Shown here piece after piece: positions 1,274-62,040 of a stretch of 64,000 nucleotides of DNA. The translations under genes and the position numbers were made by a program. Each line of letters begins with the position of its first letter. Position 1 is the stretch's first letter. The notes under the pieces are model-generated. The model made no database searches, was not told the origin of the DNA, and saw only the letters and a program-made list of their open reading frames with translations. Source of the stretch: Schmidtea polychroa (lineage: Eukaryota); contig CM097885.1 in the NCBI GenBank assembly GCA_044892525.1, forward strand, positions 3,474,001 through 3,538,000, in the 5' to 3' direction.

Positions 1274-1335
1274 ACAATGGGTGCTAATCCTTCATTACCA
1301 GACATTAAATTTAATATTAAATCTTCTTGTTGTAA

Positions 1336-2438
<1,103 letters not shown>

Positions 2439-3539: not shown

Positions 3540-4758
3540 TTTGTGGTAAATCCGAATTATGTATATTTGATAGACCATCGCCTCAAGCTGTAATAGAATT
3601 TGGGGCATTTGAGGAAGTTTTTCCTATGAATTCAATTACCGATAGTAGAAATGATATCGAGTTTTATATTAATGGGTCGCAAATTGAATATTTAGATTTG
3701 AACGATACTTTATTGACTGTTTAGATCAAGGTTGTAGATAAAGATAGAAAAGTTTTGGATGCCAATGCAGATGTAATACCAAACAATTTCATGTTTCATA
3801 CTCTTTTTAAAGATTCAGTGTTGGGATTTAATAATATTAAGATTGAGGGCGGAAATAATACATTCATTCACAAGGCTTTGATAGAAACTATTTTAAATTA
3901 CAATTCCGATACTAAAAATACCTGTCTTACACCTATGGGTTATGCAGCAACAGATGATGAAAGAAAAAAGTGGGTTAAAGGCTCAAAATCATTCACTTTG
4001 TGCTTAGCATTACAACCCGATTTTATGGATCAACCGAAATATTTGCTACCAGGAGTTAATGTACACATTAGATTGAAAAGGTCCGATTCTGCATTATCTC
4101 TTACTAGTGCAACTGGTGCACCAATATGCCAATTAGTTGATGCAAAATTATTGGTGAGAAGAGTTCGAGTAGACCCGTCAGTATTAGCTGGTCATCAATT
4201 GGGTCTTAATTCAAAACATGCAATTTATCCTTTAAAAACAAAGGAAATTGTACAATTTGCTATTGCTAAAGGTGCTTCATCATTCTATAAAGAACAAATA
4301 TTTGGTGACAGAAGAATTCCTAATTTTATTTTGGTAACATTTCAAAGTGAAACGCAATATAATGGATCTTATACTGCGTCCAGCTCAATTTTCAAACATT
4401 TTGGTGTTACTTCATTGACTTTGTCGAAAAATACTGATTATAGAGAAACATATACTCAAGATTTCGAAAGCGATAATTACTGTGCGACATATATGCAGAG
4501 TATTGTTAGAAATCTGGGTTACTTAGATAAAAACTTGAATTGTGGAATTACTCTAGAAGAATTTAAAAGCAAATATCCATTTTTCACATTTATTTTAGCT
4601 CCGATTTTGATTTAAATCAGAGTCAACTACCACAAAACGGGAATTTACGACTGGATATTAAGTTTGCAAAGGCCATTACAGAACCGGTGCATGTTATAAT
4701 ATATGGAGTATTTGTAAATGAAGTTCAAATTACTGCAAATAGAACGGTGCTAGTATAA
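3539..4758 (+). pseudogene. Polinton major capsid protein (double jelly roll), disrupted
   Basis: CGKSELCIFD...IEFYING..EYLDLNDT upstream of the track ORF, in-frame TAG at ~3722, frameshift at ~4605, then GNLRLDIKFA...VIIYG...EVQITANRTVLV*. Confidence 0.88.
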
Positions 4759-4835
4759 ATGTATACAGAAACACAAAAAGTTGTCATGGAGTAAGTTTTT
4801 TGATACTGTTTAATTTTATTAAAGTAGTTCTGTTC

Positions 4836-5170
4836 AGGTTAATCGAATTGGCAAACAAATATTAGGAAATGAATTTGTAGGTGTTTTTCCTCTCGATAAA
4901 ATTCCTTATTTGAGCAATAATCAAGCCATAATTGTCAATACTCATTCGTCTCATCTTGGTGGAGAACATTGGATAGCTATATATGTGAAACCTAGTAATA
5001 TATTCGTATTCGATCCTATGGGTTTCTATTATCCTGCTTTGTTGATATCAAAACTTCAAACAATTGGGAAACCTATTGTATATAATAAAACTATGTTTCA
5101 AAATCCATTGACTCAAACATGTAGTCAACACTGTTTGGCATGGTTGTTGTATAAAAAATTTGATGGTTAA
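4836..5170 (+). pseudogene. Adenain-like cysteine maturation protease
   Basis: FVGVFPLD..IVNTH..GEHWIA..FDPMG..FQ..TCSQHC (His-Asp-Gln-Cys arrangement); 5' end disrupted. Confidence 0.85.
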
Positions 5171-5561
5171 TAAATGTATACTGTATGATTTTTATTTGTT
5201 GAATATTTTAATTATTTGTTAAATATTATTATTTTATGTTTAAATTATTATTTGTTAAATATTATTATTATATGTTAAATATTATTATTTTATGTTTAAA
5301 TATATTATTGGTTAAATTTTATGTTTAAAATTATTATGTAATACTATTACATGTTCAGTGCAAAGTAACAAAGCACTGAGTAATAAAGACATGTAAAGGT
5401 CATTATTCCGTCATGGTTTGTATAAACAAACATGTAGTGTCTTTTCCTATCCTATCTCTATTTTCATTGGTCGGTTAATAAAACCTGTAATATCTCTCTT
5501 ATATAGTCTACACTTTCATTTTTTCATCACTTTTAAAAATCTATTAACAATATTTAACAAC

Positions 5562-5908
5562 ATGAACAACAACAACAACATTCAAAGAGTTTACGGAAAG
5601 ATCGTTGGAGGAATTAATGGTAAATTTATTATTTTATTATTTTATTATTTTTAATATGATTATTAGGTACTAATCAACAAATTAAAATGAATATCGACGG
5701 ACAAGCTGTAGACATGAATAGAATAAATGGTAATAGTTTACTCTTATTATCATTATTTTTATTATGCTTTTAGATGGAAATGTAATAAATACTTCTGCTG
5801 GTTCTGATGCTGGAAAATTTCTTTCGAAAGGACGAAAATGTAAGTATTTATTTATTGTTATACGTTTTTGAGGTTTTTAATTTTTTTAAACAATATTAAT
5901 ACTAATAC

Positions 5909-5964
<56 letters not shown>

Positions 5965-5966
5965 GA

Positions 5967-6029
<63 letters not shown>

Positions 6030-7037
6030 TAAAAGAAGATTATAAAGAAACTTATGAAAAGAAGATTTATTCATAAAAAGAAGATATTTTAAAAGAAGAT
6101 TTATTTATTTATGATGATTTTGAAAGAAAGATTCATGAAAAGAAGATTTATTTATTTATGATAATTTTGAAAGGAAGATTTATGGAAAGAAGATTTATTA
6201 AATATGATGATTTTGAACATTATAATTAATAACTTTTGTATATTATTTGGAATCATAATTTATTTTAATTATTTATGAAAATAAAATCTATTTTAGAAAA
6301 TGAATTATTTGTTTATGAAAATGAATTAAATTATATATTTTATAATATTTTTTATAATATTTTTTATAAGATACTATTTAAAAGACAATTTTGAATAATA
6401 TCTAAAGAAAAATATCTTAAACTTTGAAAATGATTATTAAAATTATCTTAACATTTTTTAAACATTTTATGATAAAAATATTTTCATAGGTTTGAAATAC
6501 CAAAACTTTTGTAATAGTCAATATCATAATGACTGCGGTGATATAATGGAAAGATATTATAGTAATAAATATAACGGTGTCACCTACATCCTATGCCCTA
6601 AATGTGAGGTTATTGAAGTTATAACGTATAAGGAATTTTATAATAAGCATAGACTCCATCTCCAACAATTTAAACATTCTAAGAAATCTCTTTTCTATAG
6701 CTTATATGAATCGTTTGTTAACAATAATAATATCAACAACAATAATAATAATATCAATAATTATAATAATAATATCAACAACAATAATAATAATAATAAT
6801 ATCAACAACAATAATAATAATAATATCAACAACAATAATAATAATATCAGCAACAATAATAATAATATCAACAATAATAATAATAATATCACCAACAATA
6901 ATACTAACAACACCAATAATAATAATAATGATATAAACGAAATCAATAATCTAAAAGATCAAGTAAATAAATTAAATGATCAAATAAATAATCTAATTAA
7001 TATGAATAAAAGAAAAAATAAATTTAATACCAAGTAA
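5562..7037 (+). CDS. Predicted spliced ORF (exons 5562-5619, 5667-5729, 5774-5839, 6490 onward), probable N-terminal leader of pPolB
   Basis: GT..AG introns of 47, 44 and 650 nt, all phase 1, frame stays open. Last exon has CPKC..H..H and an Asn-rich tract. Confidence 0.65.
5900..6028. repeat. (AAT)n microsatellite inside predicted intron 3
   Basis: Read directly. Confidence 0.95.
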
Positions 7038-7200
7038 AAAATCTAAAGTTATTGATGTAATCACAATAAGTGATGATGATGAAATAATCAACATAAGTGA
7101 TGATGAAATTGATAATAATAGTAGTAGTAGTAATATTTATTATAATAATGGTAATAATAATAATAATGGTAATAATAATAATAATTATAATTATAATAAT

Positions 7201-8661
7201 ATTAATCAAATAGGTTATGGTGTCGTAGATGTCACCAGTGATTTAAATAATAATCCTATTATATTAAAAATGGACGTTTCGTCTTTAGATTTAAAAACGG
7301 TCTCTGTACCAGACATTTTAATAAATAAATTAAATTTATATGTAAATAAATTAAAATCATGTAAAATTCAATTTTGTCTAAAGGTGGAATTTATAAAAGA
7401 TGATGAGTTACAATCTTTTGTAATCTCGAATCCCGCCCGAGTTTGGAGCGATACATTCATTGACGAAGGTATTGCTCGTTTAAATGAAAAAATAATTAAA
7501 ATTAATGAGAAAGGTAGTAATTGGACTATCAATAAAATAGAATACATAAGCTTTGTTCTGACTAAATTTGCTGAAAGTTTTATTGAAACCCCAAAATCTT
7601 TAAGAAACTTAAGCTGTCTCGTTAATGTAGTTAATAATGACCACTTCTGTTTTTTGTATAGTTTCTTGTCAATTATTAAATATGACAGTATAAATAGGCA
7701 ATATAGAAATCGCCCTAATTCCTACAATCTTTCTGAAATTAAATTTGATCCTAATGATATGCCGATGAAACTATCAAATATAAGTAAATTTGAACAACAA
7801 AATCCAGGTTATAGTATTAATGTTCTTACTTATAACGAAAAGGCTTTGATTGACATTTCCGATGAAGATGCAGTTATGAAACATCCCTTTATTGATATAA
7901 TATACAGGAGTAAGATAGTAGGAGCCATACCTATCAATTTATTATTAATTGAAAAGAATGATAATTATCATTATCTTGGAATCACAGACCTAAATAGATT
8001 CCTTAATTGTAGGAATAGTTCAATCACTCCTGTTAGGATTTGTAGTCAGTGGTGCCCTAGATGTTTAAACGGTTTTAGGAATGATGACGCTTTTAATAGA
8101 CATAAGGGTCTTTGCGATAAAAATCAGCTTGGTACTACCTTGTACACATTGCCTAAAAATAAATATTTAGAATTTACTGATTGGAGTAAAACAGTCACTC
8201 CTCCCTTTGTTATTTACGCTGACTTTGAGGCTATCTTACCTAAAGACACTCGCTACTTTCAACGTCATCTGCCTATTTCTGCCGGTATGCTTTTTATTAA
8301 TAATTTCACGGGCGTAAAAATTTATAAGTCGTTCACCGGTTTAGATTGTGTCGATCAATTTCTTACTGAAATTGAAATGATAGGGAAATATATTGTAACT
8401 CCTTATTATTATAAAAATTATCAAAAGAAAATGATAATTACAGATGAGCAACAATTAATGTTTGAAAACAGCACATCATGCTATTTGTGCAATAAACCTT
8501 TAGTTAGTCCAGTTAGGGCCCATGATCATTTTACCGGTCTATATCTTGGTGCCGCTTGTACAACTTGTAATCTGTCGAGGCAAATTAGACATATCCTTCC
8601 TGTAGTATTTCATAATTTAAAGGGTTATGATCTGCATCATATCTTTCGCCTCAGTCCATAA
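7201..8661 (+). pseudogene. Polinton pPolB N-terminal half (OTU-like region, Exo I, endonuclease VII-like insert, Exo II), truncated
   Basis: NDHFCFLYS..HY, YADFEA, CYLC..RAHDHFTG.YLGAAC..CNL, FHNLKGYD. Cut at ~8645 by a retrotransposon. Confidence 0.92.
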
Positions 8662-11600
8662 AGATTCGTCAGACACTATGGATACTCTTTCTTACTTAAA
8701 CCCCCCTTCCAATAAAACTAACACTTGTGATCTTGACGAAGACTGCGATGATGTCCAACTATCCAGCAGTGACTCATCCAATACTAATCCCGCTAATCTC
8801 TATATCCCAAATATTACATCAACTCCCATAAAAGATGAATCCAACATCTCAAAAAAATACTCTTACTTTGATAATGACTCTATGATAATTCCCATATCCT
8901 TCAAACCTTCTCCGTTAAACGACACTTCTATCATCCAAACAACTAGCTCCCACATCTCCATAGACTTAGTAAACCTAAACGACTCTCAAGATATCATAGA
9001 GGGTTCAGTACAGAGACACTCTGTAACTGATGACGCTGAGGATCTCTTCATAAACCCTATTTCTCTTAAACTTTCCCCTTTAAACGAAACATCACTCCTT
9101 AACGAAAATCTTCAACCCAACTCCTCCTTACTCTCCAATGATCCCAATAACACCATCGCTCTGATCGACCACTTACCCATAACTAATGAAAATGATAATA
9201 GAGCAGATGACACTGATAATATTAATAATAATAATGCTAACAACTCTAAATGTTGTAACTGCAATAAACCCAAATCCCTTGTTGGAATAAAAATATCCAT
9301 GGACACAGGCGAAATCCCAAAACCAACCCAAACCTTAATACCACCTAGCCTGAAATCACTTTATATGCAAGACCCTAATCTCTACTATTTCAACTCCAGA
9401 GGGAAATGTAGATGCAAACACCACTTACGCACACCTTTTTGTGGAGCGATATCCATTTACAATAGGGAAAAATTGGCCCAGCACGCACTCGAAAGACACA
9501 ACATCACTATCACTGAAAACTCCATCATAGACTGCGGCCAATGCAAAGGTGATGACGAACGCTACGTTATATATCCGGTTACACACAGGGACATATATAG
9601 ACATGTCGAGCAGTATGTGCACGAGCTGCAAAACGACAAAGATACCCTTAAAATGATATATATTAAAATTGATAAAAATAATCGCCTAACGTGTAACAGT
9701 CACAATAAAAATTACAAAAAATGCTTTACGACGTGGAATTGGGACACTCCATTGGCATGTGTTTGGGAGCACATGTCTAAAAAGCATAGGAATAGAATCT
9801 TTGATAAAAATGCAGATATATACTGCGCATGTAAGAGCTGGGTCCCAATAGATGACATTATAAATCATATAGCCCAAAGACACCCAATACCACCTAACAC
9901 TAATAATATCCCACTAACATCACAAAATCATACCGCCGAAATGCCTGTATCCATGGATATTAATGATAATATCTTAAACAATATTCTAAACACCCAGGAG
10001 GTGATTGCAGTTAACCTCGAGATACCTGTAAACACCCCGGAGGTGCCTGTAAACACCCAGGAAGCAAAACTAACTTCTTCAGATGAAGATATGATTAATA
10101 TTGAATTTAGTAGGGATATACCAGATGATTGCTTATTCACTAATAATGTTGATAAGGAGTCAGCCTGATGGTCCCAGCACACAATAAAGGCATTCGTTTA
10201 CTCCTTCGCCATCAAAAAATCCACCATCTTCGTTGACCCCTTTGTTGGTAACGCTCTAATCCAACACAATTACATAACTTTCTTTTCTTCCTTCCCTTTC
10301 AAAGATTTCGCTGAGTGGAACGAAATCATTATGCCAATGTCAAACGGCAAAGACAACTGGTTTTTCTTCTATCTTGATAAGCGGAGACATCTTGCTGTTA
10401 TAATAGATCCTTTACTTGATGATAGCCACTCCATACACTTATCTCTAGCAAATAGCATACTTAATACCATTCTTGATCTTCAAAAAATCGTCTCACCAAT
10501 CACAATTAGACTCACTAAATATGAGTACCCCCGTTGCTCTTCCTCAAACGAATCTGCCTTTTTTGTGTGCCACTTCATCAAATGCCTAATAAGAAATACA
10601 AAATTAACTACTCCTAAAATTGATATCATGCAAAAATATATCAGAACTGTTATCAAATACTATATTTCACGTAATATACCTAAAGATAATATTAAAAAAT
10701 ATTCCCCACTTATTAAAAGCATAATAATTAATTTAAATAATAATAATATGGACTGTGAAACAGCCCTTAATGAAATGCAAAAAATAAATTCATTTATTTC
10801 TCCTGATAAATATAAAATTAAAAAACCTGCAGACATTGTCCATAAGAAAACTAGGACAAAAAACGAACTGCTCTGCATTAAACGTTTTAAATATAAAACT
10901 AAACCTAAAGAGGAGATAACAAAGATCTTAAATAATAAAGTTGAGTGTAGCAAACCAACTATGTCTAATATTGTGAGACTTTTCGCAGGTACTTCCGCAC
11001 ACTGCAATACGGATCTTATTAAAAACCTTCCATCTTTACCGGAAAAACTCTCATCCACTCCTTTTGCCTTGAATGATATCAAATTCATTTTCTCACAACT
11101 TCAAAACACTGCTCCAGGACTCGATGGAATCACTTTGGCTGATAGGGTGTAAAACAGGGCTGTCCCCTGTCTATGACCCTCTTCTGTTTATCTATAGACT
11201 TCATACTACGTAATATCTTGCAAAATCATCCATTTCTTTTCCATGGTCATAATGTCGGCATACTTGCTTATGCGGATGACATTGTCCTTGTTGCTAATTC
11301 ATATACCTTGGAGTTGATTTTTCTTTATAATAGGTATGATTAATGAATGTTATAAGATGTTGAAATATTTTGATAATTTTGTCAATTTTAGATAAAACTT
11401 TTGCAAGCGTATGGGAAATCATGAAAAGAAATTAATTTGAATAGTGAGAGAGATTCTCTTCTAACTCCTCAATCATTATTAAATAAACATTGCTTATTTA
11501 ATATCAACAATAAGGTTTATTTGATCTATAGCATTTTAGCTAATTTGAATATAATGACGTTGATTGTAATAATAGAAATCGAATTAGTAATAATAAGGTT

Positions 11601-16694: not shown

Positions 16695-17603
16695 AGTAGT
16701 GTGTATATATACCCAACCCAAACAGCCCTCCCAACAAAAACATACCTCCATTACGCTTAAACCATTAGAAAAACAACATAAAACCTATGTTTTTATAGTA
16801 TTTTAACCCCATATTTTAAACAACAACCACCCTTAATCTTTAAAGCCTCAAACTCAATAGCTTCAAACTAAAAAGAGAATAGAAAAGAAAATGGCATTAT
16901 GAAAAAGTTAGAGGGCTATATCCGGAGTTGATCTTTATCAGATTATTGATTTTAAATTATATAAATTAAAAAATAAATGAAAAATAGTAAAACTGCTCTG
17001 AGAGGACAGTGGTATTTTTTTTTTTTTCACTGTCCTCTCAACAGTTTTTTTGATCCGGATCATTTTTTTTTATTCAACCTCTTTCGTTTATCAAATCTCT
17101 TCCAATATACAAGCTGGCCAGGCTCATACATCAGAATCAATTCGATAATAGCAGCACACCTTATTATTCGCTTCTCGCTCGAATACGATTTCATCGGCGT
17201 TTTAAGCGTGCTGCTCGAAAGTACAAATGAATTCGAAAGCGAATCCGAAAGAGGTCCGAAAACAACCGAGAAAGGGATCGATCCGGGGGTGTTCGAAAGA
17301 CAGGTGGCGATAATTACCGGTTCGCCACCATCACCCGTTTCAATAATTTTTTTTCATATTTATGTTTAAAAAATAATTAATTAATAAAAAAATAAAATAA
17401 AATAAAATAAATAAAATAAAATATACAAGTACTTTATAAATATAAGATACCCACACTATTTTCAATATTATTTTCAAATTTTTAATATTATTTTATGTTG
17501 AAAAAAAACTAACCTCAGATGTGATTTGAACCGCTAGCATTTTGAACCACTGTGCCAGTCTATTCCCACTGCGCCATCAAGGTTCGAATTTTTGTCATTT
17601 TTT
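16695..17603 (+). repeat. Left terminal inverted repeat (~909 bp)
   Basis: Reverse complement of 34487-35438, apart from about ten substitutions and a ~43-bp indel. Confidence 0.95.
17510..17583 (-). ncRNA. tRNA-like Pol III cassette A (inside left TIR)
   Basis: A box TGGCGCAGTGG at position 8, B box GGTTCAAATC, partial acceptor stem ACCTTG/TGAGGT, followed by T8. Confidence 0.55.
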
Positions 17604-17830
17604 AGACTATAAATAATCGATTCAAGTTCTTTAACTCTTTCCTGTAATTGTTTCATTTTCTTCAATCTTATATCAGCAACATCTACAGCCTTCATATAAA
17701 AATGTCGATACTTTTCATTATCTACCATCAACTCTTTGATGTATTCTAATGGTTCTTCTTCTCTTCTTTTCATTCTCTTATGTTTAACTTCATTCAATTC
17801 ATTTCTCATTCTTTCTTTTAACTCATCCAT
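17534..17830 (-). CDS. Small coiled-coil hypothetical protein ending inside the TIR
   Basis: 98-aa ATG ORF, charged and helical; 3' end overlaps cassette A. Confidence 0.5.
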   Translation of the reverse strand: MDELKERMRNELNEVKHKRMKRREEEPLEYIKELMVDNEKYRHFYMKAVDVADIRLKKMKQLQERVKELESIIYSLKNDKNSNLDGAVGIDWHSGSKC

Positions 17831-17999
17831 TTTTATAAATATTTTTTTATCGGATATATTAATTTTTGGTAGCTTAAGTTAAAACGTTTTTGATCTTAAA
17901 TTTCCAAGAGTTGCCGTTGACCAATCTCCTTAAAAATTTGTACAAGTACTAAATCGAGTATGCTGATCAATATTTCGTTAAAAATAAATTTGAAAAAAA

Positions 18000-18072
18000 T
18001 GACCGAAATGGGATTTGAACCCATTGGTATTGGCAATGCAGTCGAGTGCTATTACCACTAAGCTATTAGAGC
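18000..18072 (-). ncRNA. tRNA-like Pol III cassette B (5' half resembles tRNA-Cys(GCA))
   Basis: GCTCTAA-TAGCTTAGTGGTAATAGC-A-CTCGA-CTGCATT...ATGGG-TTCAAAT-CCCAT-TTCGGTCA then T7. T arm is perfect; anticodon stem does not pair. Confidence 0.65.
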
Positions 18073-18242
18073 TATACTCAATATAAAATAAGTTGTTAAT
18101 GTGTGACTATTTATTGATGAAATTAATAATTAATTATTCATTTTCTCGACAACTACCACTCGGATCGATCTGAAAATTTAAATATATACTAAAATCAGTA
18201 CGCTGAATCAGATTCCGTTGAAAAAAAAATATCGAAAAAAAT

Positions 18243-18316
18243 TGACCAAAATCGAAAATTGAACCCGGTACTCCCGGTGATAAAATTGAAGCCTATTCCC
18301 ACTCCGCTATAATGGC
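18243..18316 (-). ncRNA. tRNA-like Pol III cassette C
   Basis: A box TAGCGGAGTGG at position 8, B-box-like GGTTCAATT, followed by T7. Downstream flank is similar to that of cassette B. Confidence 0.5.
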
Positions 18317-18372
18317 TTACATAATATATTTAATTAATCCTATTGTGTGTGTGTAAATTTTAATATATAAAA

Positions 18373-19659
18373 ATGAATAATATAAAAATTCAAGAAAAAA
18401 ATAAATTAAATCTTGATTATAATAAAGAATTTACTCATGAAATCAAGAAAAACGATGTATTTAAAATCTCCCCAACTTCAGGATCTATTGCAAACTTAAA
18501 TCGTAGGGGTGATATAGTTTTTCAATCTCTTCAAACATCAAACCCAATAGATATTTGTAATGCCAAATTATATAATAAAATCGAATTAGAAATTGAAGCA
18601 AACAAAGATATAACCCTAGAAAATAATTTCTTTCCAAATTTATTCTCCAACATGAGATTAAAACTAGGATCATCAGAAATTGAAACTGTTTTGCATCCGG
18701 GAGTATATTCTACAATGTTAAATTTTATTTTGACTGGTTGTGATTATAAAAACGAATATGGTGAATTAACAGGTTGGATTCCTGATGTTAATAAAGGGGA
18801 TTTAGATAAAGCTGGTTTAGATATAAACCATGGTTACCATAAAAAAGCTGAACTTTATAAATCTAAAAAATTTGAAGGTTATTTTGAATTAAAACACTTG
18901 TTTGGATTCCTTCAAAACTATAATCGTATACTTCATAATGTTTTTATAGAATTCATCTGTAATAGAGTAGAAGGTGATAAAAGATTGTTCTATGGAGCTG
19001 TAGATACAAAAGCTAAATTAAAATTATCAACACTTGAATTACATATACCTGAATGGACATTAAACACACATTCTGAGATTAAACTCCTTGAAAGATTAAA
19101 TTCCAACAAGTCTATAAATGTAAATTATTTAAATAGAATCTGTAGTGAATTTAGTATGACAGAGGGTTCAACATATTCTATAAAGGTAGCAAATTTAGCA
19201 TACCGACCAAGATATATCTTGATTGGATTCAAAGAAGTAGATTCATCTTTCCAAAAAAATAACAACTTGTTTATTCAAAAGATTGGAGTTGATAATTTAA
19301 AAACAATCCAAATTCAATTAAATAGTTCTTATTATCCAATAAATAGAATGGAATTTAATATAGAAAATAATGAAAACATATTCCCATATCTAAATTATAT
19401 TGAAACATGTTATGATTTCAAAGTTGAACCGCAATTAAGTTTAGAAGATTTCAAAAATTTATATTCTATATTTTGTATAAATGTTTCAGACCAAGATGAT
19501 CGCCTAGCCATAAATAATGTTGATGTTACACTTCATGTAACAAAGGATTCTAATTTTAAAGCTAAAGTATATACATTAATATTAGAAGAAAAGAAAATAG
19601 AAATGAAATTATATGGTGGAAAGATTTCAATAATCGAAAATGTTAGGGGAGATTCTTGA
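18373..19659 (+). CDS. Polinton major capsid protein (double jelly roll)
   Basis: Intact 428 aa; LKHLFGF, RPRYILIGF, IQIQLNSSYYP, FKNLYSIFCINVS motifs; genomic context. Confidence 0.9.
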   Translation: MNNIKIQEKNKLNLDYNKEFTHEIKKNDVFKISPTSGSIANLNRRGDIVFQSLQTSNPIDICNAKLYNKIELEIEANKDITLENNFFPNLFSNMRLKLGSSEIETVLHPGVYSTMLNFILTGCDYKNEYGELTGWIPDVNKGDLDKAGLDINHGYHKKAELYKSKKFEGYFELKHLFGFLQNYNRILHNVFIEFICNRVEGDKRLFYGAVDTKAKLKLSTLELHIPEWTLNTHSEIKLLERLNSNKSINVNYLNRICSEFSMTEGSTYSIKVANLAYRPRYILIGFKEVDSSFQKNNNLFIQKIGVDNLKTIQIQLNSSYYPINRMEFNIENNENIFPYLNYIETCYDFKVEPQLSLEDFKNLYSIFCINVSDQDDRLAINNVDVTLHVTKDSNFKAKVYTLILEEKKIEMKLYGGKISIIENVRGDS

Positions 19660-19688
19660 TATAATCCCTGATATTTTAACATTTTAAA

Positions 19689-21098
19689 ATGTCTCTAAAT
19701 AAATATTGGAGATGTGAAAGTTGTAATTGTCAAGTTACAAGACATCATAAAGCAAGTCATTTAAAAACTAAAAAACATACAGGAGGTGATCTAATTCCAC
19801 GAGCTGGAGGTGATTTGCAATCTTCAAAAGTGGCATCTTCAATATTAAAACCTTTTACTACAGAAAAATATCCAGGTGAAAGACATTTATTTAAACACAA
19901 CTATACTGGACCAGGAACACGTCTAGATATTAGATTAGATGAAAATAATAATCCCAAACAAGGAGAAGAACCAATAAATAGAATTGATCAAGCAGCTTTA
20001 AAACATGACATTGCATACAATTCAACAAATCTTAGAGATAGACATGTTGCAGATGTGAATTTAATACATGATTTAAATAGTATCCAAAATCCATCAACCC
20101 AAGAAAAGATTCAAAGAGCTCTAGTTAAATTAGCAATGAAAGGTAAGATTTTCGTAGGCTTAGGACACAGTCCGATCACCATGGGTGCAAGACTTCCTAG
20201 GAAAGCAAAAGATGTTGCTTATAAAAAGATTATCGAACAAGCAGAGATTGAAAGATCCCTCGAGAGTACAGCCAAGACTAGTTTACAAACCCCAACAGAA
20301 TCAGAAATAAAATATGCAAAGGAATTACACCATGAATTTAGAAAAAATAAAAAATATTTAAAAGTTCAAGTACATGAAAAAGATCAAACATGGTCTGCAG
20401 ATTTAGTCTTTATGCCCAAATCATCAGACCCTGAAAAATATAAAATAATTTTAACTGTAATTGATTTATATACAAGATTTGCTTTTGCAAGATGTTTAGA
20501 AAATAAAACAGGATATTCTATTACAGAAGCATTTGAAAATATATTTGAAGAAAATCAAAGAATCCCAAAATATTTATGGTGTGATAAAGGAACAGAATTT
20601 TATAACAAAGTTTTTACAAAGTTTTTAAATGAAAATGATATTAAATTATATTCAACAGAAAACGAAGGAAAAGCAGTCGTAGTTGAAAGATTAAATAGAA
20701 CATTAAAAAATAAAATGTGGAAATATTTTACTGCTATTGGAAAACAAAAATGGAACAATGAATTGTTACAAAAGATTGTAAATGAATATAATAATGATGT
20801 ACATAGTTCTATAAAATCAACACCTTTAAATGCTTCCATGAAGCCTGAAACCATTAAAGTGGTAAATATTGAAAATGATGTTATTGAAAAACCAAAGTTT
20901 AAAATTGGTGACCGAGTAAGAATATTTAAATATAAAAATAAATTTGAAAAAGGATTCACAGCAAAATGGACAAATGAAATTTTTATTATAAATAAAATAC
21001 ATTATACAACTCCAATAACATATAGCATCTTTGATTTAAATAATGAAAAAATATTAGGTAGATTTTATAATAATGAACTACAGAAAACAGATTTTTAA
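19689..21098 (+). CDS. C2H2 zinc finger + parvovirus-type phospholipase A2 + rve integrase fusion
   Basis: CESC..HLKTKKH; HNYTGPG...IDQAALKHDIAY; WSADL, IDLYTRFA, WCDKGTEFYN, VERLNRT. Confidence 0.93.
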   Translation: MSLNKYWRCESCNCQVTRHHKASHLKTKKHTGGDLIPRAGGDLQSSKVASSILKPFTTEKYPGERHLFKHNYTGPGTRLDIRLDENNNPKQGEEPINRIDQAALKHDIAYNSTNLRDRHVADVNLIHDLNSIQNPSTQEKIQRALVKLAMKGKIFVGLGHSPITMGARLPRKAKDVAYKKIIEQAEIERSLESTAKTSLQTPTESEIKYAKELHHEFRKNKKYLKVQVHEKDQTWSADLVFMPKSSDPEKYKIILTVIDLYTRFAFARCLENKTGYSITEAFENIFEENQRIPKYLWCDKGTEFYNKVFTKFLNENDIKLYSTENEGKAVVVERLNRTLKNKMWKYFTAIGKQKWNNELLQKIVNEYNNDVHSSIKSTPLNASMKPETIKVVNIENDVIEKPKFKIGDRVRIFKYKNKFEKGFTAKWTNEIFIINKIHYTTPITYSIFDLNNEKILGRFYNNELQKTDF

Positions 21099-21109
21099 GT
21101 CGACAAGCC

Positions 21110-21916
21110 CTAAAACAAACTTTTCCATATTTCAGCTTCTTCTCTATCCAAATAAATATAATTATATTTTTCTTTCCAATGATTATCAACAAACATATCA
21201 AACATATTCTTATCAGGTTCAACATTTGAAAATAAATCATTATAAATCATATTCTTATCACGGCGATCTAATTTAAAAAATATAAAACAATTGGAATTAT
21301 TTCTTATTGAATTTTTATCTAAAGCATAATATGTTTGAGATATATAAATAACATTACAATTATTATGTCGACCTCGTGTAAAGTAACTCTTTTGAATCTC
21401 TTGATTTTTCATATTAACAACATCATCAAATATAACTAGATTCTTTTTATCTTTAGGAAGTAAATCACAATGTAAAACATCTTCAGGTTTATTAGAGAAT
21501 AAAACTTGAATTGCCTCCTGCCCTTCTTCACAAATATAATCATTTTTATTACTAATATCTGATTCTAAAATCTTTTCCTTATACCAATCAACCATATCAC
21601 AAGGTTGAAAAACTTCTTCAGGACATCTATGTTGATTTTTAAAAATATCAATTATTGCTTTTTTAGTTAATTTATTTTCAAATCCACATTTCAAAAGTTG
21701 TAATTCTGGTTGATTTATAGTTGTAGAGTAAAAGATTAAATTATTATAATCTAAAAAATCATCTTCAAGTAACATTCTCAAAACAAGTACATTCTTTCCA
21801 CATCCAGAAGAACCAACAATTAATAATCTAAAATTATCAGGAAATACTTTATTATTAAATTTACTCTTATGTCTATTTAAAATTGGTTTCCAAATTATTG
21901 GACTTCGTACATCCAT
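21110..21916 (-). CDS. A32/FtsK-like genome packaging ATPase
   Basis: Walker A GSSGCGKN, Walker B LVIFDD, FTRGRHNN, YISQ, IRNN. ATG at 21916. Confidence 0.93.
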   Translation of the reverse strand: MDVRSPIIWKPILNRHKSKFNNKVFPDNFRLLIVGSSGCGKNVLVLRMLLEDDFLDYNNLIFYSTTINQPELQLLKCGFENKLTKKAIIDIFKNQHRCPEEVFQPCDMVDWYKEKILESDISNKNDYICEEGQEAIQVLFSNKPEDVLHCDLLPKDKKNLVIFDDVVNMKNQEIQKSYFTRGRHNNCNVIYISQTYYALDKNSIRNNSNCFIFFKLDRRDKNMIYNDLFSNVEPDKNMFDMFVDNHWKEKYNYIYLDREEAEIWKSLF

Positions 21917-21931
21917 TTTGTTTATTATAAA

Positions 21932-22509
21932 ATGACAACTGAAGAATCTTTGCAAGAATTAATAAATTCAAATAAAAATAAATCAGTAGTAATTGATGGT
22001 AAAAATATTTTATTGGAAAACATGTAAAAGAACAAGTTAGAGCGAAGCTCCACGAAGCTAAAGAAGGAGGCATTCTTCCATTAGCTGCTTTAATACCTGC
22101 AATCATTGCTGGTTTATCAGGTGCTGCTGGAATAGCTGGAGGAATTGCAACTACAGTTCAAAAAGCTAAAGAATCTCAAAAGACAGACCTAGAAAAAGAA
22201 AAACTACAAACTGAAATCGATTCAATGAAGAAGGTAGGGCAAGCTAAAGTGGGAGTGTCCGTTGGAAAGGGTCTCTATCTTAATCCATATGAGGGGAGTC
22301 GGCAAAAGTCTCAGGGCAAAGGTCTCTATCTTGATCCTTATAAAGGTAGAGGTTTAAATGATTTTTTAAAAAATCAAATTTCTACATCTGAATCTTTATC
22401 TTCAAAAGATAAAGAAGATTTAAAAAAAATATGTAAATCTTTAAAGAATGGATGCCTTTGTAAAACTAAAAATGGTAAAGGATTATACTTGAAGCCCTTC
22501 GAACTATGA
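21932..22509 (+). pseudogene. Virion core/membrane-active precursor protein with a 1-nt frameshift at 22001-22005
   Basis: One extra A restores MTTEESLQ..GKKYFIG..KEGG-ILPLAALIPAIIAGLSGAAGIAGGIATTV..., followed by three GKGLYLxP repeats. Confidence 0.8.
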
Positions 22510-22531
22510 TACCATTTTTGATACCATTAAA

Positions 22532-23413
22532 ATGGTATATGAAGAAAGATTAGCACTTTTAAAAAAATTACAATCAGAACAAGATAAATATAATAAAAAA
22601 GATACAACTCAACATGCTGAATCTATAATATTAAATGAGGTAATAACACAACAACAGGGGCCAACAATTAAAGCTATAAAAGAGTTGGAAGATTTCAATG
22701 AGCAAGCAAAATTTAAAGAGTTAGAAGATAAAAAACAAAAAATAAAAGAACTAGAGTGGCAGGATAAAGAAAAAGAATCCAGTGAAAACCATCCTGAAAG
22801 TCATCCTGAAAGAAATCAAAGAAAACGCAGAAGAATTTCTAATGTGGAAGAAGAAGAAATGTTTTTAAAAACAAAACCTCTTAAAGTTGATCCTAAAATT
22901 AGAGATGATTTACCTCCTTCAATTAGACCCACATTTAATACTAATACTGAAGGATATCAAATAATAACAATTAATAAACAAAACTTTACTTTATATTCAA
23001 ATTCAGAAAATAAATCACGTATTCATTCACAAAATGTTTATAATAATGAATATTTAGACTTTGAATTTACAGATGATTTTTATAGATTACTTTGTGGATA
23101 TTCTTCAGATGATGTTGAAGAAATTAAAAAATATTTAAATTTAATAAGATTAATAAGAGCTGGTTCTAAAGCAAAATATATTCAAGATTTAAAGAATTAT
23201 TTAAATAAAAATGAAAAGGGTTATGTTGTTACAGAGGGAGAGGGATTGGTTGAACCAAATCCTATCAATCTTTTTATTGAATTAAGAAAACTATTAGCTG
23301 CAAGGAAAGCAGGACATAATAATTTAGATTCTGATATTTTAAAGATTTCTAAAGATTTGTTAAAACAAGGAATAATTTCAAAAGATAAATTTAATAAGTA
23401 TACGAAGTTATAA
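22532..23413 (+). CDS. Conserved Polinton uncharacterised protein
   Basis: Intact 293 aa; C-terminal GEGL..PINLFIELRKLLAARKAGHNN..I..DL...GII, resembling a recurrent Polinton ORF. Confidence 0.7.
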   Translation: MVYEERLALLKKLQSEQDKYNKKDTTQHAESIILNEVITQQQGPTIKAIKELEDFNEQAKFKELEDKKQKIKELEWQDKEKESSENHPESHPERNQRKRRRISNVEEEEMFLKTKPLKVDPKIRDDLPPSIRPTFNTNTEGYQIITINKQNFTLYSNSENKSRIHSQNVYNNEYLDFEFTDDFYRLLCGYSSDDVEEIKKYLNLIRLIRAGSKAKYIQDLKNYLNKNEKGYVVTEGEGLVEPNPINLFIELRKLLAARKAGHNNLDSDILKISKDLLKQGIISKDKFNKYTKL

Positions 23414-23435
23414 ATACGAAGTTTTAAAATACAAA

Positions 23436-23900
23436 ATGACTCCTTCAATATTAGATTTTTTAAAAACATTTGGAATAAATGCAAAAACAAATTTTGATTT
23501 AAAAGATTATGCAAATTATTTAAATTTAAAAATTAAAATATTAATGAATGATGAATTATCAAGTCTGGAGAGTCCCCTGAATATAATAATCAATTATCAA
23601 ATTTCAAATGAAAAAGGATCTCATTGGGTTTGTATATATAAGAAATCTATCTACTTTGATTCTTTTGGGATTAAACCTACTAAAGAAGTTGAAGATTATC
23701 TCTTGAGGGGTTCTCCGATTGATTCCCCAAATGGTTATACTTTTAACTCTTTACAAGTTCAACCTTTGAATACTAAAATATGTGGTATTTTAAGTTTATA
23801 TGTTTTGTATAGATTGAATAAGGGAGAGGGAAAGGGGCATACGCAGGATTTTGAATCTATAATTCAAGAAATTTATAATGATCTAGAATCTCTACTATAA
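23436..23900 (+). CDS. Adenain-like cysteine protease (copy 1)
   Basis: GSHWVC, YFDSFG, QVQ..ICG catalytic residues intact. Confidence 0.93.
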   Translation: MTPSILDFLKTFGINAKTNFDLKDYANYLNLKIKILMNDELSSLESPLNIIINYQISNEKGSHWVCIYKKSIYFDSFGIKPTKEVEDYLLRGSPIDSPNGYTFNSLQVQPLNTKICGILSLYVLYRLNKGEGKGHTQDFESIIQEIYNDLESLL

Positions 23901-23948
23901 GGATTTTTACTATAAGGATTTTTACTATATGAATTTACTATTAAAGAA

Positions 23949-24713
23949 ATGGAGCTTCACAACCCTCCGGAAGATAATTTAAAAAAAATGGTAAACATAA
24001 TGTCAGATAAATATTCAAGAACTTTATCTATAAATTCAAAAGAATCAGACTTTACTATAAACTTTCAAGATTCAATTAAATTAGATCAAAATTTAAATTA
24101 TGAATTGGGGCTATTATGGTTTTGTGCTTATAATACTATTTTTAATATAACTAAAGATAATAATAAATTTACTATTCAAACTCGTGATGGGCATAAACCA
24201 GAAATTATAACAATAGAACCTGGGGCATATGAGATAAAAGATTTAAATGATATACTTTCTAAAAAAACAAATGAAGGTATTAAAATTAAAATGGATATAC
24301 CAACTTCAAAATGTGTAATGACTTTGATGAATATAAAAATTAGTTTTTTAGATAATTGTTTCTTTCACACAGTTTTAGAATTTAAACCTATGGATATAAC
24401 AATAAAAGAAGATAAAATAATAACATCAGAACATATTATAAAAATAATAAATACAAACACAATAAATATTCATTGCGATTGTATAACAGGTTCTTATAAT
24501 AATGGTAAACAAACAAATGTTTTATATATCTTTCCCTCAAACACAGTTCCTATGGGATATAAAATAGTTGAAAGAATGAATCCTCCAAATTATTTACCTT
24601 TATGTAGAAAATATATAATGGATATTAATTTTAAAATTCTTAATCAAGAAGGAGAATTGATTGATTTTAATGGAGAAGAGATTTCAATGTATTTACATTT
24701 GAAACAGGTTTGA
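23949..24713 (+). CDS. Minor capsid (penton-like) protein (copy 1)
   Basis: FNIT..NNKF, PGAYEI, INIHCDCITGSY.NG, PPNYLPL, NQEGELIDFNGEEI..LHLK. Confidence 0.88.
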   Translation: MELHNPPEDNLKKMVNIMSDKYSRTLSINSKESDFTINFQDSIKLDQNLNYELGLLWFCAYNTIFNITKDNNKFTIQTRDGHKPEIITIEPGAYEIKDLNDILSKKTNEGIKIKMDIPTSKCVMTLMNIKISFLDNCFFHTVLEFKPMDITIKEDKIITSEHIIKIINTNTINIHCDCITGSYNNGKQTNVLYIFPSNTVPMGYKIVERMNPPNYLPLCRKYIMDINFKILNQEGELIDFNGEEISMYLHLKQV

Positions 24714-24737
24714 AGATTCATTTTAAATTATTAATAA

Positions 24738-25748
24738 ATGAGTTCTTATATTCCATGTAATAGAGGTGGTGGAACAATAAAAACAGGGTTTAATACAGAA
24801 GAAATATTAACTTTAACAGAAAATAAATATATTAATGAAAGAGGTGATTCAATGAAGGGTGATTTAATTTTAAATGGACACAAGATAAAGGAATTATCTT
24901 TTCCAACTGATGAAGCTGATGCAGTTAATAAGAAATATGTAGATGGTGTTAAAAAATATACTGATTTAACAACAACAAGAATTGAAAGTTCATTAACAAC
25001 AAAAATTGATTCAATGGAATCAAAGCTTAATAATATCGAACAACGATTTAATGATAAATTTGACAAGTTACAAAGTCTGTTAACTGAACAAGTTGTAAAG
25101 TTAAATACTGCTATATTAAATTCTAAAGATAAACAAATTATGAATACTAAATTTAATACAATATATAAAATAATAAATGAGATGATTACATCATTTAATA
25201 AAAGAATTTCAAATTTAGAGTCTCATGGAATACACATTAACACCACACATAGTATTAGAAAAAGAGCTGCTGAATTAGAACAGAATAAAACATTATTACC
25301 CCATACATATAAACATTTTATAGAACCAAGTTTAATAACAACAAACAGTAAAGAATGGGGTGTTTTTATGGTTGTAAAAATTATTGATCCTTATTTCTTT
25401 TTGTTTGATGATGATAATGAAAGAATGAAATGGTTTGTGAAATGTGATTATAATAGTAAGCTTGAAAAGGGTGATGTTATAATGACTAGTTATGATTAAC
25501 CACACGGAGATTGGTATGTTAATACTCATTCACATGGACTACATAAAGTTAAAAGTAAGAATATTCATTTTTCTAGTTCACTTGTACAATATATAGATTT
25601 AATATTTTATGAAAAAAAGGTTGATGTTGATGAAGTTCGTAAAGCATTGAGAGAATTGTATAAAGATATCCTCTCAACAAGAGTTTCTTTTGATATCCGA
25701 GTATTGGTGCCAGATGGTGCTCAGAAGAATAAAGTCTTATTTTTTTAA
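24738..25748 (+). CDS. Putative fibre/attachment protein (copy 1) with in-frame TAA at 25497-25499
   Basis: GDSMKGDLILNGHKI..L..P....DAVNKKYVD fibre/adhesin-neck-like motif plus coiled coil. The same frame is open for 82 more codons after the stop. Confidence 0.6.
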
Positions 25749-25756
25749 TTATTAAA

Positions 25757-26254
25757 ATGGAAGAAGTAAGAGAAGAAAAAATTTACCCAGAATTGAGATC
25801 ATCAGGATATTATTCCGAAGGTCACAAAGGTTCCAAGGCCTCGGCTCCCACAGAACTTGAAATTATGAGAGTAAAAGAATTTAAATCAGAAACCTTACAT
25901 TTACAAGATTTATTAAAGCATTATAAAAAAATTAAAAATAGATGGAATAAAGGGAATACAGTTATAGGTTATTCTTTAGGATTTGCATCTGCAATATTAA
26001 CAGTTATTTTACCCATAACTTTACCAGTTGTTACTCTTGCACCTGTAATACTTGGAAGTATTTCTGTGGCTGATGGTTTCTTAACTGAAATAGTTTCATT
26101 ATCTTATACTTCTAAAAAGAAAAGTTTATATAGAGAAGTTTGTTTATCAATAGAATTAGGAATCTCTAAATTATTTTTATTTCAATTAAAAGCTTTGGAA
26201 GATGGAATCCTGACAGACGAAGAAATAATGAAATCAAATCAAATAATAAGATAA
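25757..26254 (+). pseudogene. Membrane protein truncated by the duplication junction
   Basis: Identical to 29424..30026 up to the junction at 26247. Confidence 0.85.
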
Positions 26255-27080
26255 ATATAATAAAAAAGATACAACTCAACATGCTGAATCTATAATATTA
26301 AATGAGGTAATAACACAACAACAGGGGCCAACAATTAAAGCTATAAAAGAGTTGGAAGATTTCAATGAGCAAGCAAAATTTAAAGAGTTAGAAGATAAAA
26401 AACAAAAAATAAAAGAACTAGAGTGGCAGGATAAAGAAAAAGAATCCAGTGAAAACCATCCTGAAAGTCATCCTGAAAGAAATCAAAGAAAACGCAGAAG
26501 AATTTCTAATGTGGAAGAAGAAGAAATGTTTTTAAAAACAAAACCTCTTAAAGTTGATCCTAAAATTAGAGATGATTTACCTCCTTCAATTAGACCCACA
26601 TTTAATACTAATACTGAAGGATATCAAATAATAACAATTAATAAACAAAACTTTACTTTATATTCAAATTCAGAAAATAAATCACGTATTCATTCACAAA
26701 ATGTTTATAATAATGAATATTTAGACTTTGAATTTACAGATGATTTTTATAGATTACTTTGTGGATATTCTTCAGATGATGTTGAAGAAATTAAAAAATA
26801 TTTAAATTTAATAAGATTAATAAGAGCTGGTTCTAAAGCAAAATATATTCAAGATTTAAAGAATTATTTAAATAAAAATGAAAAGGGTTATGTTGTTACA
26901 GAGGGAGAGGGATTGGTTGAACCAAATCCTATCAATCTTTTTATTGAATTAAGAAAACTATTAGCTGCAAGGAAAGCAGGACATAATAATTTAGATTCTG
27001 ATATTTTAAAGATTTCTAAAGATTTGTTAAAACAAGGAATAATTTCAAAAGATAAATTTAATAAGTATACGAAGTTATAA
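26248..27080 (+). pseudogene. 5'-truncated duplicate of 22532..23413
   Basis: Lacks the start codon; begins at the junction. Confidence 0.85.
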
Positions 27081-27102
27081 ATACGAAGTTTTAAAATACA
27101 AA

Positions 27103-27567
27103 ATGACTCCTTCAATATTAGATTTTTTAAAAACATTTGGAATAAATGCAAAAACAAATTTTGATTTAAAAGATTATGCAAATTATTTAAATTTAAAAAT
27201 TAAAATATTAATGAATGATGAATTATCAAGTCTGGAGAGTCCCCTGAATATAATAATCAATTATCAAATTTCAAATGAAAAAGGATCTCATTGGGTTTGT
27301 ATATATAAGAAATCTATCTACTTTGATTCTTTTGGGATTAAACCTACTAAAGAAGTTGAAGATTATCTCTTGAGGGGTTCTCCGATTGATTCCCCAAATG
27401 GTTATACTTTTAACTCTTTACAAGTTCAACCTTTGAATACTAAAATATGTGGTATTTTAAGTTTATATGTTTTGTATAGATTGAATAAGGGAGAGGGAAA
27501 GGGGCATACGCAGGATTTTGAATCTATAATTCAAGAAATTTATAATGATCTAGAATCTCTACTATAA
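27103..27567 (+). CDS. Adenain-like cysteine protease (copy 2)
   Basis: Identical translation to copy 1. Confidence 0.93.
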   Translation: MTPSILDFLKTFGINAKTNFDLKDYANYLNLKIKILMNDELSSLESPLNIIINYQISNEKGSHWVCIYKKSIYFDSFGIKPTKEVEDYLLRGSPIDSPNGYTFNSLQVQPLNTKICGILSLYVLYRLNKGEGKGHTQDFESIIQEIYNDLESLL

Positions 27568-27615
27568 GGATTTTTACTATAAGGATTTTTACTATATGAA
27601 TTTACTATTAAAGAA

Positions 27616-28380
27616 ATGGAGCTTCACAACCCTCCGGAAGATAATTTAAAAAAAATGGTAAACATAATGTCAGATAAATATTCAAGAACTTTATCTATAA
27701 ATTCAAAAGAATCAGACTTTACTATAAACTTTCAAGATTCAATTAAATTAGATCAAAATTTAAATTATGAATTGGGGCTATTATGGTTTTGTGCTTATAA
27801 TACTATTTTTAATATAACTAAAGATAATAATAAATTTACTATTCAAACTCGTGATGGGCATAAACCAGAAATTATAACAATAGAACCTGGGGCATATGAG
27901 ATAAAAGATTTAAATGATATACTTTCTAAAAAAACAAATGAAGGTATTAAAATTAAAATGGATATACCAACTTCAAAATGTGTAATGACTTTGATGAATA
28001 TAAAAATTAGTTTTTTAGATAATTGTTTCTTTCACACAGTTTTAGAATTTAAACCTATGGATATAACAATAAAAGAAGATAAAATAATAACATCAGAACA
28101 TATTATAAAAATAATAAATACAAACACAATAAATATTCATTGCGATTGTATAACAGGTTCTTATAATAATGGTAAACAAACAAATGTTTTATATATCTTT
28201 CCCTCAAACACAGTTCCTATGGGATATAAAATAGTTGAAAGAATGAATCCTCCAAATTATTTACCTTTATGTAGAAAATATATAATGGATATTAATTTTA
28301 AAATTCTTAATCAAGAAGGAGAATTGATTGATTTTAATGGAGAAGAGATTTCAATGTATTTACATTTGAAACAGGTTTGA
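27616..28380 (+). CDS. Minor capsid protein (copy 2)
   Basis: Identical translation to copy 1. Confidence 0.88.
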   Translation: MELHNPPEDNLKKMVNIMSDKYSRTLSINSKESDFTINFQDSIKLDQNLNYELGLLWFCAYNTIFNITKDNNKFTIQTRDGHKPEIITIEPGAYEIKDLNDILSKKTNEGIKIKMDIPTSKCVMTLMNIKISFLDNCFFHTVLEFKPMDITIKEDKIITSEHIIKIINTNTINIHCDCITGSYNNGKQTNVLYIFPSNTVPMGYKIVERMNPPNYLPLCRKYIMDINFKILNQEGELIDFNGEEISMYLHLKQV

Positions 28381-28404
28381 AGATTCATTTTAAATTATTA
28401 ATAA

Positions 28405-29415
28405 ATGAGTTCTTATATTCCATGTAATAGAGGTGGTGGAACAATAAAAACAGGGTTTAATACAGAAGAAATATTAACTTTAACAGAAAATAAATATATT
28501 AATGAAAGAGGTGATTCAATGAAGGGTGATTTAATTTTAAATGGACACAAGATAAAAGAATTATCTTTTCCAACTGATGAAGCTGATGCAGTTAATAAGA
28601 AATATGTAGATGGTGTTAAAAAATATACTGATTTAACAACAACAAGAATTGAAAGTTCATTAACAACAAAAATTGATTCAATGGAATCAAAGCTTAATAA
28701 TATCGAACAACGATTTAATGATAAATTTGACAAGTTACAAAGTCTGTTAACTGAACAAGTTGTAAAGTTAAATACTGCTATATTAAATTCTAAAGATAAA
28801 CAAATTATGAATACTAAATTTAATACAATATATAAAATAATAAATGAGATGATTACATCATTTAATAAAAGAATTTCAAATTTAGAGTCTCATGGAATAC
28901 ACATTAACACCACACATAGTATTAGAAAAAGAGCTGCTGAATTAGAACAGAATAAAACATTATTACCCCATACATATAAACATTTTATAGAACCAAGTTT
29001 AATAACAACAAACAGTAAAGAATGGGGTGTTTTTATGGTTGTAAAAATTATTGATCCTTATTTCTTTTTGTTTGATGATGATAATGATAGAATGAAATGG
29101 TTTGTGAAATGTGATTATAATAGTAAGCTTGAAAAGGGTGATGTTATAATGACTAGTTATGATTAACCACACGGAGATTGGTATGTTAATACTCATTCAC
29201 ATGGACTACATAAAGTTAAAAGTAAGAATATTCATTTTTCTAGTTCACTTGTACAATATATAGATTTAATATTTTATGAAAAAAAGGTTGATGTTGATGA
29301 AGTTCGTAAAGCATTGAGAGAATTGTATAAAGATATCCTCTCAACAAGAGTTTCTTTTGATATCCGAGTATTGGTGCCAGATGGTGCTCAGAAGAATAAA
29401 GTCTTATTTTTTTAA
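28405..29415 (+). CDS. Putative fibre/attachment protein (copy 2) with the same in-frame TAA at 29164-29166
   Basis: One amino-acid difference from copy 1 (E/D). Confidence 0.6.
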
Positions 29416-29423
29416 TTATTAAA

Positions 29424-30026: not shown

Positions 30027-30120
30027 AATGGGTGTATTTTTATAAAAGTAGATCAAGTTGCTATAGTTGCTTAAATTAATTGTCGACATTTTATTATTAA
30101 AAAATTAAATATCGTTGGTT

Positions 30121-62023: not shown

Positions 62024-62040
62024 TATTTTAACATTTTAAA

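Follow-up and report, generated by a model that had tools for sequence, protein, structure and literature searches.

Sequence evidence for a probably spliced pPolB gene in a high-copy Polinton/Maverick family of Schmidtea polychroa

The window analysed here is a 64,000-nucleotide (nt) stretch of the Schmidtea polychroa genome (assembly GCA_044892525.1, contig CM097885.1, positions 3,474,001 to 3,538,000 of the forward strand). It holds a copy of a high-copy Polinton/Maverick family of the adintovirus type, whose DNA polymerase gene, pPolB, is in all likelihood a spliced gene, and whose lineage would thereby depart from the intronless pattern published for these elements. The element very probably needs host splicing for its DNA polymerase, its integrase and its protease. 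An earlier note on the window had proposed a spliced multi-exon leader ahead of pPolB. The gene anatomy, its conservation among copies and the logic of its reading frames come directly from the sequence; a sister family with four leader exons (family C), the introns of the integrase and protease genes and a survey of homologues are added here.

Three leader exons lie on the plus strand of the window at 5562-5619 (58 nt, with the start codon and a short Asn run), 5667-5729 (63 nt, phase 1-1) and 5774-5839 (66 nt, the final base being base 1 of a conserved Cys codon), and exon 4 starts at 6490. They are separated by three phase-1 GT-AG introns at 5620-5666 (47 nt), 5730-5773 (44 nt) and 5840-6489 (650 nt, with a GTAAGT donor and (AAT)n and other short repeats); the exon and intron coordinates of the earlier note were thus confirmed. 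Leader exons had 30-35% GC and introns 6-18% (Fisher p = 1e-4), and keeping any one of the three introns brought a stop into the read-through frame. Ahead of exon 1, an inverted CCAAT box (5466-5470) and a TATA-like box (5500-5505) form a likely RNA polymerase II (Pol II) core promoter. Exon 4 begins with a Cys/His domain (6490-6720) of the pattern C-x6-C-x4-H-x2-C ... C-x2-C-x14-H-x2-H, a putative two-site zinc module containing an in-frame internal ATG at 6546, and continues into an Asn-rich low-complexity linker (6721-7005) whose length differs among copies.

The joined frame was open for 244 codons, up to a stop at 7035-7037. At this point the window copy has a single frame break (7006-7037, two frames overlapping), where most other mapped copies are uninterrupted; the several frameshifts that had been placed near 7010-7090 come down to one frame change. 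The proposed lead into NQIGYG and pPolB held, the pPolB frame opening at 7006 and running unbroken to 8661. The pPolB body (7038-8645) comprises an acidic patch, QIGYG, a terminal-protein (TP)/OTU-like region and the start of the exonuclease, the domains being named by position from PMC11071308 and by motifs, and it is 24% identical (E 1e-19) to the other pPolB of the window. It is truncated by an inserted non-LTR (long terminal repeat) retroelement fragment (8646-11152, plus strand, left junction approximate) with a weak PF02902 Ulp1-type protease match below cut-off. Besides this N-terminal half (7006-8645), the window holds a C-terminal piece of pPolB, inverted on the minus strand (3-771) and 96% identical to copy L067. 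Because of the frame break near 7020, the retroelement near 8645 and the inverted piece, the window copy is judged a dead, rearranged and damaged element. In intact copies exon 4 is the pPolB frame itself, whole. For one sequence, splicing on paper is possible by chance; the weight lies in the other copies and the sister families.

Copies were collected from the AT-rich 781 megabase genome, which includes four very large contigs. A leader DNA search gave 383 first-look candidates, the best 40 of which were scored and were 93-96% identical, the window itself aside; a second set of 29 loci was found with the exon-4 protein, two of them also belonging to the leader-DNA set. In the leader-DNA set, all 29 other copies retained the ATG and the five mapped splice dinucleotides, and all 28 copies with a mapped exon 4 retained the last acceptor. 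The spliced frame continued into pPolB in 17 of these 29 copies; where it stopped, it did so at differing places. In the exon-4-protein set the leader was mapped in 25 of 29 loci; all seven signals were kept in 24 of these 25, exon lengths were frame-keeping in all 25, and the spliced frame reached pPolB in 23. The protease gene lay upstream of the leader in 26 of 29 loci, which places the leader in a Polinton context. By hand count, about 63 of 150 scored exon-4 matches sat in open frames 1,320-1,410 codons long. Exact matches to the two flanks of intron 1, with a gap of 26-55 nt, occurred at 256 genomic places, and matches to a control pattern at none.

Lengths were compared in 56 of 58 loci, those in which the leader was mapped. 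Exon 2 measured 63 nt in 51 copies and 57 nt in five, and exon 3 measured 66 nt in 51 and 60 nt in five. Intron 1 was 47 nt long in 51 copies and 39 nt in five; intron 2 was 47 nt long in 50, 46 nt in five and 44 nt in one. Intron 3 ranged from 418 to 985 nt in other copies, and every length class occurred (length modulo 3 of 0, 1 and 2 in 14, 25 and 15 copies; n = 54). The length changes of exons 2 and 3 thus keep the frame while those of the introns do not; one copy had lost 1 nt in exon 1. A spliced frame that continues into pPolB, splice dinucleotides conserved across copies and the Polinton context of the exons support the first of the two readings that had been offered, host-type introns within the replicase gene.

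Two sister families carried the same arrangement. Their exon-4 domains were 43% (family B, copy L063) and 42% (family C, L066/L078) identical to that of the window family (family A). Family B has leader exons of 55, 57 and 48 nt, with all signals kept in 9 of 9 further copies; family C, of which one copy was read, has four of 52, 60, 108 and 201 nt. Leader matches of family C were up to 100% identical at many genomic places, from which it follows that its elements moved recently with the introns in place. All ten leader introns of the three families are phase 1, each family has its last acceptor within the same Cys codon, the first introns are 44-47 nt long, and a CCAAT and TATA-like pair stands 53-142 nt before the ATG. 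GC was higher in exons than in introns in every family (p = 1e-4, 3e-3 and 4e-15). As judged by these comparisons, the structure of the leader is conserved between families and its sequence is not.

The capsid and protease genes of family C (L078 1-1170) were nearly identical to those of family A (window 3990-5172), the pPolB genes being only ~42-49% identical. This points to swapping of the polymerase cassette between families A and C, as the accessible portion of 10.1101/2023.08.22.554363 describes for nematode Polintons.

The split Cys is the first residue of the Cys/His domain. In the unspliced frame of the window a Gly stands at its place and no Met precedes 6546; therefore, only splicing gives both the start and the first Cys. 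A profile built from the domains of the three families found 52 homologues among 1.84 billion representatives. The full Cys/His pattern was present in 31, and in 26 of these a Met lay no more than seven residues ahead of the first Cys; several homologues continued into pPolB. Some homologues carried the domain in at least two tandem copies. The domain is probably zinc-binding, judging from its residues; it had no Pfam match and no PDB match. A predicted model of homologue P0012 (predicted local distance difference test score, pLDDT, 76) gave no significant fold match in BFVD, PDB or a wide search (best Z 2.7), and an Atlas search returned nothing named, with recognition below threshold. A word-index search with the exon-4 domain among longer proteins gave three candidates, none significant.

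Thirteen of the 52 homologues (P0012, P0017, P0021, P0023, P0025, P0027, P0031, P0034, P0035, P0044, P0045, P0047 and P0051) end in a Gly and a short hydrophobic tail 10-20 residues past the domain, a pattern that would fit gene callers running on into a phase-1 intron rich in AT. When DNA of the homologues was sought, three single-protein scans of viral contigs found nothing, and a metagenome scan gave two distant loci, both without the Cys/His domain. Eight related pPolB genes from viral contigs were single open frames without the domain, and in seven of them a Met stood among the first 17 codons. Hydrophobic-then-acidic motifs of the SUMO-interacting type occur in the exon-4 linker of family A (window 7050-7100) and in leader exon 3 of family C (L078 2128-2160).

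Two further genes of the element also look spliced in their sequences. The rve integrase gene (1335-2438, plus strand; PF00665, E 9.5e-7, 29.5 bits against a cut-off of 32.6) consists of two exons split by a GT-AG, phase-1 intron (1723-1845) directly after the second catalytic Asp; the intron is a 123-nt (ATT)n tract here, and 97 and 70 nt long and frame-breaking in two other copies. Both flanks of this intron were matched at 265 genomic places with a gap of 36-66 nt. Among the 100 of these that were listed, ~80 (hand count) carry a different intron of 41-43 nt in which a stop immediately follows the donor and so precedes the third catalytic residue. The site thus holds two unrelated introns, an (ATT)n microsatellite of variable length and an AT-rich 41-43 nt intron with an in-frame stop, and both ends of the intron repeat TTTAG|GT, as expected from an origin by tandem duplication. 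An exon-edge pattern search found no integrase copy without an insert; four matches carried inserts of 21-23 nt.

The adenain-type protease gene (4786-5172, plus strand) has a 5-nt exon (4786-4790), a 37-nt phase-2 intron (4791-4827) and a second exon (4828-5172). Once joined, the two exons read from ATG to stop without interruption, a sister copy matches PF00770, and the gene gains its start codon only on removal of the intron. A TATAAA box lies ~30 nt before the protease ATG. Among the loci collected, overlaps included, the intron was matched 26 times, 24 times at 37 nt and twice at 36 nt. The proposal of phase-1 introns only therefore stands for pPolB and fails for the element as a whole, the protease intron being phase 2. 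Because the integrase and the protease carry protein-blocking introns too, splicing appears to be a property of the lineage and not of pPolB alone. Introns that would block three enzymes if retained, in young, high-copy elements, are the strongest indirect argument for splicing.

By its pPolB, integrase, ATPase and protease sequences the element belongs to the Polintons/Mavericks. The gene order read from copies is TBP (opposite strand), ATPase, a basic open reading frame (ORF), integrase, two capsid-sized frames with a small ORF between them, protease and pPolB. PF03175 matched the C-terminal half of pPolB in same-family copy L067 (E 1.6e-19), rve_3 and Chromo matched integrase exon 2 of another copy, and PF04665 (packaging ATPase, E 1.8e-7, L066) and PF00770 (protease, E 1.6e-6, L061) were found in further copies; the rearranged copy in the window lacks the ATPase. 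In family A a short TBP homologue (PF00352, E 5e-15; L066 5982-6470, minus strand) stands head-to-head with the ATPase. The capsid-sized frames, of 427 and 360 codons, are in the expected place and had no Pfam match; by position and motifs they are presumably double and single jelly-roll capsid genes. The OTU region of pPolB, likewise without a Pfam or PDB match, is assumed from a Cys/His motif near 7640-7970.

Expression of pPolB may be pictured as follows. Host Pol II would transcribe the gene in the nucleus from the CCAAT/TATA promoter, and the host spliceosome would remove three ordinary AT-rich GT-AG introns. The leader would thereby contribute the start codon, together with the base that opens the first Cys codon of the N-terminal Cys/His module. 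Translation from 5562 would then pass through the leader, the Cys/His module, the Asn-rich linker and the TP-OTU-exonuclease-polymerase chain, a chain described for pPolB in the available part of PMC11071308. The leader, of 62 residues, would be a loosely constrained spacer in which the frame matters and the sequence little, and the phase-1 symmetry would allow leader exons to be gained or lost without a frameshift (three, three and four in the three families). Between 46 and 52% of G bases in these genes fall at codon position 1. This share, about half of G, favours phase-1 G|GT donors. Since the gain and loss of symmetric exons is also free, the run of phase-1 introns needs no special device. 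A far bolder proposition is doubtful: that polymerase, integrase and maturation protease are all splicing-dependent in a whole animal Polinton lineage, with phase-1 exon modules around the Cys/His domain and regulated splicing that limits replication and integration to certain cells, forming a living intermediate between intron-free Polintons and adenovirus splicing.

Several observations weigh against a spliced pPolB or limit the evidence for it. Both sets of copies are the best-scoring ones and so biased to young copies, and the short forms of exons 2 and 3 are confined to one subfamily, which makes them two events and not ten. The leader peptide is, as far as its variation tells, unconstrained and without purifying selection. 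Variants common to at least three copies were six non-synonymous and one synonymous in the leader, against none and three in the exon-4 domain, and the leader peptides of families A and B had no detectable homology (p = 0.11). Because its peptide is unconstrained, the leader most likely supplies a start codon and not a function. All three families share the internal Met at 6546 without variation, and the gene calls of about ten homologues begin at its counterpart; these may represent genuine short forms or calls made downstream of an intron that was missed, and a shorter pPolB starting at 6546 is possible.

Transcripts and processed copies also gave no direct support. Among the sequencing runs listed as containing the element, none was recorded as RNA. 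When contigs of four runs were aligned to a sister copy, no predicted intron was found among the 15 joints listed (118 others), and introns 1 and 2 with exon 2 were skipped as repeat. A contig of run X1, which is RNA by guess and whose coverage of the element is DNA-like, runs through the intron-3 acceptor without a splice. The RNA junctions asked for by the earlier note were accordingly covered in part: no junction appeared in the listed joints, which are only some of the total, and part of the leader was skipped. Exon-edge pattern searches with a gap of 0-25 nt found no processed intron-free copy at junction 1 (0 matches, against 256 for the intron-1 positive control), at junction 3 (0 matches, with no positive control possible) or in the integrase.

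Splicing could serve as a control gate. Retained introns, skipped exons or a switch to the internal Met would then set the place and time at which full pPolB and integrase are produced; in one variant there would be polymerase forms with and without a complete first metal site. This idea, compatible with a spliced pPolB, is tentative and rather unlikely. It would suit the loss or shift of frame on retention of any leader intron, the immediate stop in the commonest listed integrase intron, the internal leader exons, which are all phase 1-1 and each skippable in frame, and the invariance of the internal Met in three families. However, stops are expected by chance in AT-rich introns, donors and acceptors are ordinary, and the share of G at codon position 1 (46-52%) by itself favours phase-1 G|GT donors. 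The Drosophila P element, a cut-and-paste transposon whose transposase is spliced tissue-specifically, limits this splicing to the germline. Like the P element, the present element would be a DNA transposon that relies on splicing by the host to make a key enzyme; tissue-specific splicing has been shown for the P element.

It is quite improbable that the upstream exons go unused, with an unspliced RNA arising within intron 3, initiation at 6546 and the exon-like blocks serving as promoter DNA or surviving as relics. The invariant Met, the homologues called from its equivalent, the lack of a junction among the listed RNA joints and the unconstrained leader residues would all agree with this. 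Such a start would nevertheless lose four Cys/His residues conserved in all three families, and would leave unexplained the shared AG at the same Cys codon, the frame-keeping exon lengths, the GC-rich exon islands behind a CCAAT/TATA pair and the introns of the integrase and protease genes.

We regard as highly improbable the capture of a piece of a host gene, introns included, ahead of pPolB. Nematode Mavericks do hold intron-containing cargo of host origin (10.1101/2022.07.12.499685, in its accessible part), and the sequence differences among the three leaders are of the kind expected from separate captures. Three unrelated captures are, however, unlikely to share a promoter layout, first introns of 44-47 nt, phase and the final acceptor. 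Moreover, the earlier note had asked whether the exons also occur away from Polintons, and all scored leader matches (best 40 of 383 candidates) were copies of the element.

Least credible is the other reading offered by the earlier note, a separate spliced accessory gene of ~244 residues made of exons 1-4 and ending at 7037 with pPolB downstream: it matches the window copy as it stands, and the N-terminal part is split from pPolB in some Polintons, such as a coral polinton (PMC11071308, available part), but the frame enters pPolB in most other copies (23 of 25 and 17 of 29) and those that stop do so at differing places.

A spliced pPolB thus remains the preferred account, and sets the element apart from otherwise similar ones. 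Like animal Polintons/Mavericks (adintoviruses with OTU and the PF03175 'Alpha' PolB class; PMC8502044), it combines in one cassette a PF03175 pPolB, an rve integrase with chromodomain, an A32-type ATPase, an adenain protease and capsid-sized genes. Published vertebrate and nematode Maverick core genes are intronless, a trait that describes these elements and does not define them, whereas pPolB, integrase and protease here have predicted GT-AG introns. In their accessible portions, PMC8097293 reports no introns in intact vertebrate Mavericks and 10.1101/2022.07.12.499685 describes nematode core genes as intronless with introns in cargo only. The available text of PMC8502044 does not mention splicing, and that of 10.1101/2023.08.22.554363, PMC12220804 and PMC12721341 mentions only group I introns or their absence. 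Searches of the openly readable literature gave no account of spliceosomal introns inherited in the core genes of animal Polintons; Repbase, supplements and subscription papers may hold one.

Adenovirus Ad-pol uses the same small first exon as the preterminal protein (pTP). The E2B region resembles the arrangement here in that a protein-priming replication protein takes its start codon from a small exon further upstream. In human adenovirus 37 (HAdV-37) the first coding exon of pTP is 9 nt long, and pol is listed as unspliced (PMC2397415 Table 1, as accessible). In E2B a tiny distant first exon is common to separate genes for TP and polymerase. Here, by contrast, three or four coding exons lying next to one another, behind a promoter of their own, would serve one fused TP-OTU-polymerase gene, and no leader common to several genes was seen. 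The adenovirus TP is a separate gene and its OTU domain is inactive (PMC11071308, in the part available). The adenovirus parallel drawn by the earlier note would extend to a small upstream start exon for pTP, as an analogy that implies no membership.

Spliceosomal introns inside Polinton-like elements also occur as introners in dinoflagellate Maverick-Polinton-like proviruses (10.1101/2025.03.18.643946, in the accessible part). Those are mobile intron families mostly gained after integration, whereas the short AT-rich introns here keep inherited positions across divergent, recently active families. Introners are repeated introns, similar to one another, that vary in presence and absence; here no empty allele was found at the three sites searched (junction 1, junction 3 and integrase).

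Introns 1 and 2 of family A were alike (p = 0.007), in one of 13 uncorrected comparisons of AT-rich sequence. Exon duplication was considered as an origin of the leader and had no support in family A (p = 0.32-0.99) and weak support in family C (p = 0.011 and 0.022, uncorrected, 13 tests). Leader copies often lay in close inverted pairs 1-5 kb apart (L069/L070, L071/L072, L076/L077 and L027/L028), which suggests palindromic, deleted derivatives of the element.

Elsewhere in the window, the retroelement fragment at 8646-11152 has a Cys/His-rich frame, the weak Ulp1-type protease match and an internally deleted reverse transcriptase, a layout with the protease ahead of the reverse transcriptase that resembles NeSL elements. 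A second, distant Polinton family occupies 16977-34454 and 60722-64000 with a double jelly-roll (DJR) capsid, a PLA2-integrase, an A32 ATPase and a C2H2-finger pPolB (24% identity). Its pPolB frame has a Met near the start and no obvious leader exons, and ~22500-25700 is repeated at 26250-30000 as an internal duplication. A broken Gypsy-type LTR element and two Mutator-like transposase fragments were recognised by translated motifs only (43230-45792, minus strand; 46671-47171; 58466-59359).

Surveys that define intact elements by uninterrupted frames would score spliced lineages as dead and misannotate the start of the polymerase. A need for the spliceosome would tie these elements to nuclear expression by host Pol II and argue, for this lineage, against a cytoplasmic, virophage-like life in a giant-virus factory. 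Spliced Polinton genes would also bear on the origin of adenovirus-like splicing, and splicing may offer a control point to the host or to the element.

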